From NCBI GenBank assembly GCA_048885865.1, contig JBHLLF010000003.1:107477-171476 (forward strand): a DNA stretch of 64,000 nt, in the 5' to 3' direction. The notes beneath the pieces were generated by a model. That model did no database searches. It saw only the letters and a list, made by a program, of their open reading frames with translations, and was not told where the DNA came from. The position numbers were made by a program, and so were the translations under genes. The DNA comes from Candidatus Hermodarchaeota archaeon (GTDB lineage Archaea > Asgardarchaeota > Thorarchaeia > Thorarchaeales > Thorarchaeaceae). This document shows, one piece after another, positions 24,922 through 27,606 of the stretch (positions are counted from its first letter, which is position 1; each line of letters begins with the position of its first letter).

Positions 24922-26157
24922 CTATGCAATATTGGTCTTTTCGAGAAGGGGCTCAAGAGAGATCTCCATCTGAAGCTTTACCTTTTCATCAAAGGACTCT
25001 AGAATCTCGGATTCAATCCTCACCTTGAAGTCCTTTGCACGATCAATCTCACGAGTAATATCATCCCTGATTCTTAGCATGTCACTTCGATGATACTCCA
25101 AGTTCCTTTCAGCTTCATTCAATTCCTCTTGCAGTTTTGCACTCTTCGCATATATGTCAGAATCAGCAAAAGCATGACGCTTCTCTTCAAGTTCCTTTGC
25201 TTTCTCCTGAAGCTCACCCAGAGATCCGCTGCTGATGGCTTGGACCTCTTCAATAGCCCTTCTTGCCAGCCGGTCCTTCATAGGTAGCTTGCCATTCTCA
25301 ATTGCCTGTCTCAAACCGGCTAATCCCTCCAACAATCCAGGATAGCCGATTGGCTCTTCCACGATGGCATCATAGGGATTCTCGAAGTATTCGTTCAGCG
25401 CCTTCTGCCCTGTCGCACCAACTCGTACTCCTGTATCATGTTGAAAGAACTTCTTCACCTGCTTCTTGAGGGGATTCAGTTTCATTCTCAAGAGACTCGC
25501 AATATGGTCTGCTTCGGAGTCGATGTTCAGCAAATCCGCTACATTTGAAGTTTCAGTGAATTCCTCATACTTTTTCTTTGCTGATTCATATTCAGTCAGT
25601 GCTGTTTCAATCTTTGCTCGAGTCGTACGAATTTGCTCTTCATATACCTCTTTACTAAAGCCAAGATCTTGAAGAGTCTGGATTCTACCACCTATGCGCT
25701 CTAAATCCTTCAGCCAGCTGAACTCGTAAAGGAGCTTCTGTATCTTGTTCATCTCAGACATGAGTTCTTTCATGCTGACATCCAGCTGCTTGATAGTACT
25801 CTTGTGCTTCTTGTCCATCCGTCTAATCCAACGAGCGCCAGCACCCCAGAGTTCTTGGATGAAGCTTCGAATCCCTTCTTGAAGCGACTCAGTGCTTTCG
25901 TACGTTATTTCCTTACCAACGTAGAAATCATTTGTAATGTCTTCAACCTTCATTGCGAATCTCGTAGCAATTCCTATGGAATCAGGGTCATCATCTTCAC
26001 CTGGTTCCTTAAGATTCCGCGACATCACCTGAATGTCTTTGAGAGCTCTCTCGACAATCCTGTAGCTCTTTTCAGCCTTCTTTGTAAAATCCTTGGACAT
26101 CTTGCTTAGACGATTGCGATACCACTTCTGAAGCTGCTCGATTGTTAGAGTCGTCAT
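24922..26157 (-). CDS. Coiled-coil-rich hypothetical protein
   Basis: 411-aa charged helical ORF with GGTGG RBS; 12 nt from dtdA. Confidence 0.72.
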   Translation of the reverse strand: MTTLTIEQLQKWYRNRLSKMSKDFTKKAEKSYRIVERALKDIQVMSRNLKEPGEDDDPDSIGIATRFAMKVEDITNDFYVGKEITYESTESLQEGIRSFIQELWGAGARWIRRMDKKHKSTIKQLDVSMKELMSEMNKIQKLLYEFSWLKDLERIGGRIQTLQDLGFSKEVYEEQIRTTRAKIETALTEYESAKKKYEEFTETSNVADLLNIDSEADHIASLLRMKLNPLKKQVKKFFQHDTGVRVGATGQKALNEYFENPYDAIVEEPIGYPGLLEGLAGLRQAIENGKLPMKDRLARRAIEEVQAISSGSLGELQEKAKELEEKRHAFADSDIYAKSAKLQEELNEAERNLEYHRSDMLRIRDDITREIDRAKDFKVRIESEILESFDEKVKLQMEISLEPLLEKTNIA

Positions 26158-26299
26158 TGAAAGCCCACCTGAGATTCGAAAGGGTTTTCCGAGTGCACTT
26201 TATCAACTTTGTGACCCGAGCGTAGCTGCACAACTTGTGTATGGTAGAGCTTTTAACTCTAGGAAACTCGGAGAAACTAGCATAGGAACGTGGTCGGTC

Positions 26300-27103
26300 A
26301 TGTCCGAGATCTTTGAAACCGGTAACCGACGTCCAAGGCTCGACATCAATTATGCTGTTGAATGTGCGTCATGAGGCGTAGGTCGCATCGGTTTCTACAT
26401 CAGACGCCTCGGACTGATAGATCCCACCGGAAAGGAACGACTACTGCTCAAGAATCCTGCTGACTATAAAGGCGGAATCTGGGCGTCTTATGTCGCAGAT
26501 GGGACTGTAGCTGTCGTCGAGTCGACAGAAGCTGACACCATCGCTGTCGTGGAGCGAAAGCAGAAGAAAGGTAGCCTAAGTCTAGTGATGAGCCATACAC
26601 CTCAAGAATTCGAGGAACCTGTGGTCAACTTCACACTTGATTTATGGAGCTACAATAAACCTGTCTTGCTACTTCGGCATACGACAACAAACGTCAGTTC
26701 CAGCATGGTCCAAGACCTCAAGGTCTACAGCATCTTCGACTTCGATATAGGAGGTCCAATGAGCTACAAAGACGACATGGGCACCTATGACGAAAAGAAC
26801 GGAATCGTCATTGCCTATGATGAAAGCCAGGTTTCTGTAGCCATTTCCTCACAGCCGAGTCCCGATGGCTGGGAGATATCATCTCCACTGAAGCTCAAGG
26901 TAGAATCAGATAAGCGCGACCTAAGGAACAATCCCGAAGCGGGACCGAAGGACATTGCCACCGGTCTGCAGTGCAACCTAGGCGATTTAAAGCCGGGTGA
27001 TAGCAGTTCGGTGGATCTTGTCCTCGCCTCCGCGCACGGTCTTGACGAGGTTCGAAGCCTCATCGATATGTCATGGGGCTTCTTCAACAAGAAAATCCGA
27101 TGA
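26300..27103 (+). CDS. Candidate novel selenoprotein (267 aa, Sec25 in CxxU)
   Basis: ATG 26300 gives MSEIFETGNRRPRLDINYAVECAS[TGA 26372-74]GVGRIGFYIRRLG..., running without another stop into ORF 26549..27103; SECIS-like hairpin at the 3' end. Confidence 0.82.
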
Positions 27104-27145
27104 TATCTACACCTAAAGCAATGCGGTGTCGATGGAGGCCGGGTT
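27094..27145 (+). promoter_or_regulatory. Eukaryote-type SECIS element overlapping the stop codon
   Basis: Helix I AATCCG/CGGGTT; core A-UGAU/GGAG (tandem G.A); helix II ATC.ACACC/GGTGT.GAT; apical AAA plus GC-aat-GC mini-stem; spacing ATGA-N11-AA-N18-GA. Confidence 0.8.
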
Positions 27146-27166
27146 GCAGCCCGCGGCAAGCAGTGG

Positions 27167-27215
27167 AAAAAAAGAGAATGAGAGGGGATTACTCTCGAAA
27201 GTGATCCCGCCTCTC
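27167..27215 (-). terminator. Hairpin plus T-run terminating the minus-strand wHTH gene
   Basis: GAGAGGGGATTAC...GTGATCCCGCCTCTC stem next to AAAAAAA on the plus strand. Confidence 0.5.
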
Positions 27216-27606
27216 ACTTGTAATACTGTTCTTCGAGGAAGTTAGCCAACATTACAGCAGTTGCTGTAAGCTTTGCCAGCTGTCCTCTGTTTTCCATATC
27301 ACCGCCAGATAGCAAACCCAAGTCCATTAAGGATCGCAGATTCCATTTCACAGTGCTATAGGCAACTGAAGTCCTGCGAGATACCTGGTCTGCTAATGCC
27401 GTCACTGTCAGATCATTATGCCTTAACAGCTGGGCACTCACTCTCAGAACGTATTTCTGAGTCTCACTCATTCTCATATCTGCTAGAGACAAGAATGACG
27501 CAGCGAGGCTCTCAAAAGAAGGCTTGGCGAAAGGTTCGTGACTCTCTTGGAATACCTGGTTGGCACTAGAGAATACATTCACCTCTTTGGCGAATTTGGC
27601 ACTCAC
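27214..27606 (-). CDS. Winged-helix DNA-binding protein
   Basis: 'TVTALADQVSRRTSVAYSTVKWNLRSLMDLGLL'. Confidence 0.7.
   Translation of the reverse strand: MSAKFAKEVNVFSSANQVFQESHEPFAKPSFESLAASFLSLADMRMSETQKYVLRVSAQLLRHNDLTVTALADQVSRRTSVAYSTVKWNLRSLMDLGLLSGGDMENRGQLAKLTATAVMLANFLEEQYYK

Follow-up and report, generated by a model that had tools for sequence, protein, structure and literature searches.

A putative Thorarchaeia selenoprotein family outside the listed Asgard families, with a eukaryote-like SECIS whose core includes the stop codon

Results

The gene under study lies at positions 26300..27103 on the plus strand of the window, the whole 64,000-nucleotide stretch of DNA analysed. Translation from the ATG at 26300, with one in-frame TGA (26372-26374) read through, gives 267 residues and ends at the TGA stop 27101-27103. 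The two TGA codons are in frame and separated by 729 nt, in agreement with the initial annotation, which had placed a UGA read as Sec about 730 nt upstream of the terminal one. The product is a predicted selenoprotein of an unlisted Asgard family, a stand-alone beta-supersandwich with a C-terminal helix, and its Sec codon belongs to a CxxU motif, C22-A-S-U25 (26363..26374, plus strand). Ahead of the ATG, a Shine-Dalgarno-like GTGGT/GTGAT (26290..26294, plus strand) is kept in most Thorarchaeia orthologs and presumably acts as such. Upstream and divergent to the selenoprotein gene is a gene for a 411-aa coiled-coil protein with a weak BAR match (24922-26157), and convergent with it is a 130-aa winged-helix gene (27214-27606, minus strand); both flank it in nearly all Thorarchaeia loci. 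A Roadblock-GTPase gene is found upstream in the Cys-encoding loci and in those of the Loki-type family f9, and family f16 loci carry a GcvH-like gene and then SepSecS downstream, the distance from the selenoprotein gene to SepSecS being about 600 bp. The neighbour genes do not settle the function of the protein. An additional feature of f16 is a NifB-like radical SAM gene upstream (L118:3670-6375 in G098; also G113, G106, G079 and G089).

The Sec-column TGA is present in 44/44 full-length family orthologs with 39-100% identity, counts of this kind coming from related genomes and thus not representing independent events. The 24 codons 5' of the Sec TGA are free of stops and differ mostly at third positions (12987 vs 6670 and 3578), and the CxxC of Cys homologs aligns with the CxxU of the Sec forms. 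The gene thereby shows what is expected computationally of a selenoprotein, namely a conserved Sec-TGA opposite Cys in homologs and coding conservation on both flanks. The W that homolog P0040 shows at this column was rejected as a gene-caller artefact, TGA having been translated as W.

A eukaryote-type SECIS had been proposed at the 3' end of the gene, with a core of ATGAT (27100-27104) against GGAG (27134-27137), apical adenines at 27115-27117 and the spacing RTGA-N11-AA-N18-GA, all of which are exact in the sequence. Helix II (27105..27133, plus strand) pairs 27105-27113 with 27125-27133, with one U-C mismatch, and is topped by the unpaired AAA and a GC mini-stem (27118-27119 with 27123-27124); the 3' strand of the core (27134..27138, plus strand) comprises G, GA (27135-27136) and the GG of a canonical stem. 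In the alignment of 43 orthologous 3' ends, pairing in helix II plus mini-stem amounts to 91.6% of the cells, and double changes number 111; 0/500 shuffles reached this level of pairing, and slid controls gave 26-48%. The structure is thus conserved among TGA-containing orthologs, helix II covarying strongly. The apical AA is invariant in 43/43 orthologs, as are the TGA and the A of the 3' GA across orthologs. The assignment to the eukaryotic rather than the methanococcal type likewise stands, since the conserved core is RUGA/GA and the GAA bulge of the GAA/A type was not found. A generic SECIS descriptor matched 104/107 Sec-form loci (45/46 in Thorarchaeia, 55/56 in f9, 4/4 in f16 and 0/1 other) vs 1/8 Cys-form loci, one of these eight having just 38 nt of flank.

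A covariance model of the SECIS, built without the window's genus, gave the site 46.5 bits, with an E-value of 6e-11 in the window, where the next best match reached 12.4 bits; among the matches listed for the 3.6 Mb genome, the site was the only one. This gene-specific model did not detect the SelD and VhuU SECIS elements and barely detected the Loki-type ones, and therefore does not represent Asgard SECIS elements at large. Rfam gave no match within the window at the gathering threshold. The minimum-energy fold of the bare sequence is a different structure; the support for the SECIS fold thus comes from covariation and not from energy. The element has RUGA before the stem, GA after it and unpaired adenines at the stem top; its upper stem of 9 bp with one mismatch falls inside the 7-15 bp and at most 2 mismatches of Asgard eSECIS-like elements, and the gene whose 3' end it occupies contains an in-frame Sec UGA, the genome also encoding Sec machinery. 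By these sequence features, the element belongs to the known class of Asgard eukaryote-like SECIS.

The lower part of the element requires a different drawing. Helix I as initially annotated (AATCCG/CGGGTT) is 49% paired vs 50% in shuffles, and the outer pairing suggested as possible (GGGCT/AGCCC) is 53% paired vs 50%, so that neither is upheld. From the alignment, we favour a standard kink-turn over a helix I plus outer helix, in the layout defined in PMC1874613. The 5' strand of the canonical stem, CC (27097..27098, plus strand), would pair with GG at 27137-27138 and be followed by a 3-nt bulge, G-A-U, and then G, A and U (27099..27104, plus strand), the stop TGA 27101-27103 providing the last bulge base and both sheared-pair bases. 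C27098-G27137 is C-G in 43/43 aligned orthologs and in 45/45 copies of the gene, and the pair below it covaries (C-G/G-C/A-U); the invariant C-G directly under the core and the covarying second pair indicate a 3-nt bulge whose final base is the stop-codon U. The sequence thus holds the 3-nt bulge, tandem G.A/A.G and canonical bulge-closing pair of a standard kink-turn. Elsewhere this closing pair is C-G in 19/21 SelD and G-C in 30/30 VhuU elements, and 55/56 Loki-type ones have U-A or U-G.

Downstream of the core, CGGG (27140-27143) more likely pairs with CCCG (27150-27153) as a side hairpin, CGGG-UUGCAG-CCCG (27140..27153, plus strand), which would make a three-way junction in most orthologs. 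The hairpin is 86.9% paired with double changes in 4/5 pairs, and a similar one occurs in SelD, VhuU and Loki-type orthologs; an energy-only shuffle test of it was modest in the GC-rich SelD and VhuU. The whole 23-pair model is 86.8% paired (0/500 shuffles, 19 pairs with double changes), a value that leans in its favour since the structure was drawn from the same alignment. In most genera a lower stem is formed from the last codons; the window's own copy is without it. A role of the side hairpin in terminating the convergent gene was rejected: on the minus strand the T-run comes ahead of the hairpin, and SelD and VhuU have the hairpin as well. Only two short L7Ae-family proteins, none SBP2-sized, were found in the source genome, which makes SBP2 an unlikely binder; the kink-turn is probably bound by L7Ae or L30e.

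The predicted protein model has a pLDDT of 92.8, with the Sec loop as its least confident part (pLDDT 69), and places Sec in a turn between strands 13-22 and 29-40. It matches the glucodextranase/glucoamylase N-domains of PDB 1lf6 and 1ulv over the whole length, linker helix included (Z 23.2 and 22.7, rmsd 2.5 A, about 227 aligned residues), and Foldseek agrees, on GH94/GH116 domains. Sequence searches of Pfam, NCBIfam and PDB found nothing significant except a weak TIGR01577 match in 3/37 members. The beta-supersandwich of GH15 N-domains and GH94 phosphorylases is therefore shared as a fold, but at 14-16% identity, with no catalytic barrel in the chain and with the CxxU/CxxC turn present here. 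The protein is no GH15 glucoamylase, as the ORF ends at residue 267, straight after the linker helix, in 43/44 orthologs.

The cysteine pattern bears on what the Sec site may do. The motif is CxxU in Thorarchaeia forms; in most f9 forms the U is accompanied by a C-terminal Cys, and three Cys occur in the Cys forms. A true selenoprotein whose Sec/Cys site binds metal instead of redox cycling would agree with the third Cys that accompanies CxxC in the Cys homologs (as CxxCxxC or as the conserved C-terminal Cys), but most Loki-type Sec forms retain the C-terminal Cys without the first one, and Thorarchaeia forms retain CxxU without the tail. Only a pair is thus conserved, and a resolving-Cys redox cycle fits better; we regard metal binding as unlikely. 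The CxxU turn is, somewhat more probably than not, a redox-active selenol/thiol pair on a glycosidase-type, ligand-binding beta-sandwich.

The source genome encodes tRNA-Sec, SepSecS, EFSec and a SelD with an internal TGA, and a PSTK-like match below the family cut-off adjoins SepSecS. No internal TGA was found in its MvhD/VhuD domains. A genome-wide descriptor scan gave no other convincing new selenoprotein in this genome; the scan is incomplete, because it missed SelD. In a profile search of a sample of 301 genomes of the phylum, full-length members were found in families f1, f9 and f16 (TGA) and f24 (Cys). All four are SepSecS-positive, and no full-length member was found in the SepSecS-negative families searched; the gene is absent from some SepSecS-positive families too.

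Discussion

In its folded state, the SECIS would offer the Sec-insertion machinery (EFSec carrying Sec-tRNA) three features, namely the kink-turn, the side hairpin and the A-rich apical loop. L7Ae or L30e is the probable ligand of the kink-turn, and the action of the element would recode codon 25 (UGA). By the time the final UGA enters the decoding site, the ribosome would already have unwound the core that holds this UGA; no SECIS would then be left for the final UGA, and termination would be the default.

That the core UGA is the terminating codon, as annotated, is plain from the position of TGA 27101-27103 in the AUGA core. The overlap is not unusual. It is already published for Loki VhuU.1 (PMC4989117) and general in Thorarchaeia, where the stop coincides with the core in 43/44 full-length orthologs, 21/21 SelD and 30/30 VhuU genes, SelD and VhuU of the source genome included; among long ORFs in this genome, TGA is the stop of 37%. 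Mariotti 2016 (PMC4989117) reports that the AUGA of Loki VhuU.1 doubles as the stop and proposes a minimal-distance rule, and Huang 2024 (PMC11227280) describes the stop as frequently overlapping AUGA. Nor is it required. The Loki-type f9 loci separate stop and core, with the core 12-33 nt downstream in 55/56 and TAA as the stop in 46/56. In family f16 and at locus L043, the core is within the coding sequence and a TAA stop lies in the apical A-run. At L043 (1399-1478 in G019), a changed frame close to the 3' end takes the ORF through a GUGA core to the apical UAA, a difference that is either a natural variant or an assembly error. From the comparison of orthologs, the overlap is a compact Thorarchaeia-wide layout and no gene-specific switch.

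The initial annotation had further proposed that termination is coupled to Sec insertion, so that a terminating ribosome would keep the SECIS open and throttle Sec insertion by trailing ribosomes. Transient unfolding of the SECIS is physically unavoidable, and fixation of the overlap in three unrelated Thorarchaeia genes, against a TGA share of 37% among the long ORFs of the source genome, speaks for such coupling, but the requirement for the core sequence already accounts for TGA fixation. Moreover, the SECIS is detached in nearly all Loki-type loci of the same orthologous gene and its core is inside the coding sequence in f16 and L043, and a Methanococcus SECIS was moved right to the coding region with no apparent impairment (PMC9622424). 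With the SECIS after UAA or within the coding sequence in orthologs, termination-coupled regulation is unsupported, and we consider it improbable; a self-guaranteeing stop is the simpler explanation.

An alternative in which the internal TGA represents a genuine stop or a lesion, with the protein starting downstream as annotated and the hairpin serving as a terminator or stability element, is hardly credible: the close database entries are indeed N-truncated hypothetical proteins (at most 241 aa, named Candidatus Thorarchaeota) and the convergent gene ends about 60 nt off, but among the roughly 100 loci inspected the Sec-column TGA never gives way to TAA or TAG, conservation extends to the upstream codons, the predicted fold includes the first strands, homologs carry Cys at the Sec column, and the hairpin follows the TGA form and not the neighbour genes. 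We therefore read the SECIS of the window, from its sequence, as very probably (at about 0.88) the cis-acting element of a genuine selenoprotein mRNA, recoding the UGA at codon 25.

Among known elements, the lokiSECIS of VhuU.1 (PMC4989117) shares the AUGA...GA core, a stem of about 9 bp, an A-rich loop and AUGA as the stop. The present element differs in occurring in Thorarchaeia, in a gene outside the five reported families, and in its apical mini-stem; its canonical stem and side hairpin do not appear in the passages of that account consulted. It also shares with the Asgard eSECIS-like type II model (PMC11227280) the GA/GA core, the 7-15 bp upper stem, the mini-stem and unpaired adenines, but the model there has a simple internal loop and a lower stem in place of a 3-nt-bulge kink-turn and side hairpin. 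Eukaryotic SECIS form 2, which is bound by SBP2, has in common the AUGA/GA core, the apical AA at 11-12 nt and action at a distance from the 3' end; the present stem is shorter, the element overlaps the coding sequence, and no SBP2-sized L7Ae-domain protein was found here. The internal GAA/A bulge and GC clamps of the methanococcal eaSECIS are not seen in the element. A Loki SECIS did not work in M. maripaludis (PMC11881835).

In a search of mostly open literature, the family was missing from the lists consulted, namely the seven Asgard selenoprotein families of Huang 2024 (PMC11227280), the five of Mariotti 2016 (PMC4989117), those of two other Asgard papers and the 119 of a 2026 review. By sequence and fold it has no match to SelD, FrhA/VhuU, HdrA, FrhD/VhuD, Prx-like, AhpF-N, DsbA-like, FdhA, FwdB or HesB. 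What is new is thus an unlisted Asgard selenoprotein family and a refined kink-turn with side hairpin, the SECIS class and the stop/core overlap being known. The Asgard selenoproteome has been described via homology to known families, and lineage-specific families have therefore been invisible. We think it rather likely that this is a selenoprotein family common to Thorarchaeia and Loki-type lineages, built on a glycosidase N-domain sandwich and served by a three-way-junction SECIS with an L7Ae-type kink-turn. The gene occurs in the majority of genomes in several Asgard families, and the fold of its product would be new among archaeal selenoproteins. The refined kink-turn turns SECIS recognition in archaea without SBP2 into a concrete binding question, and L7Ae/L30e would, if this is true, be the missing archaeal forerunner of SBP2. 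Three natural SECIS placements in one orthologous gene, together with SECIS-less Cys forms, make a test set for the minimal-distance rule.

Several minor observations concern related loci. Most Loki-type f9 orthologs (for example L082, L086-L092, L098, L099, L101 and L103) are without an in-frame ATG, and f9 loci show GGAGG followed about 8 nt on by a conserved ATA, about 14 codons before the Sec TGA, a pattern that suggests an AUA start codon. In the f9 copies L115 and L116, the N-terminus is aberrant and the Sec codon out of frame while the SECIS is retained, possibly through frameshifts or assembly errors. Nine Thorarchaeia genomes (L158-L166) encode a longer SelD-family protein of about 750 aa, without TGA in the matched region. 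Outside the window, on the minus strand (G000:C19:7621-7680), a second copy of the last 18 vhuU codons with its own SECIS sits 3.7 kb downstream of the intact vhuU and is preceded by AT-richer DNA, possibly reflecting an insertion-site duplication or an assembly join.
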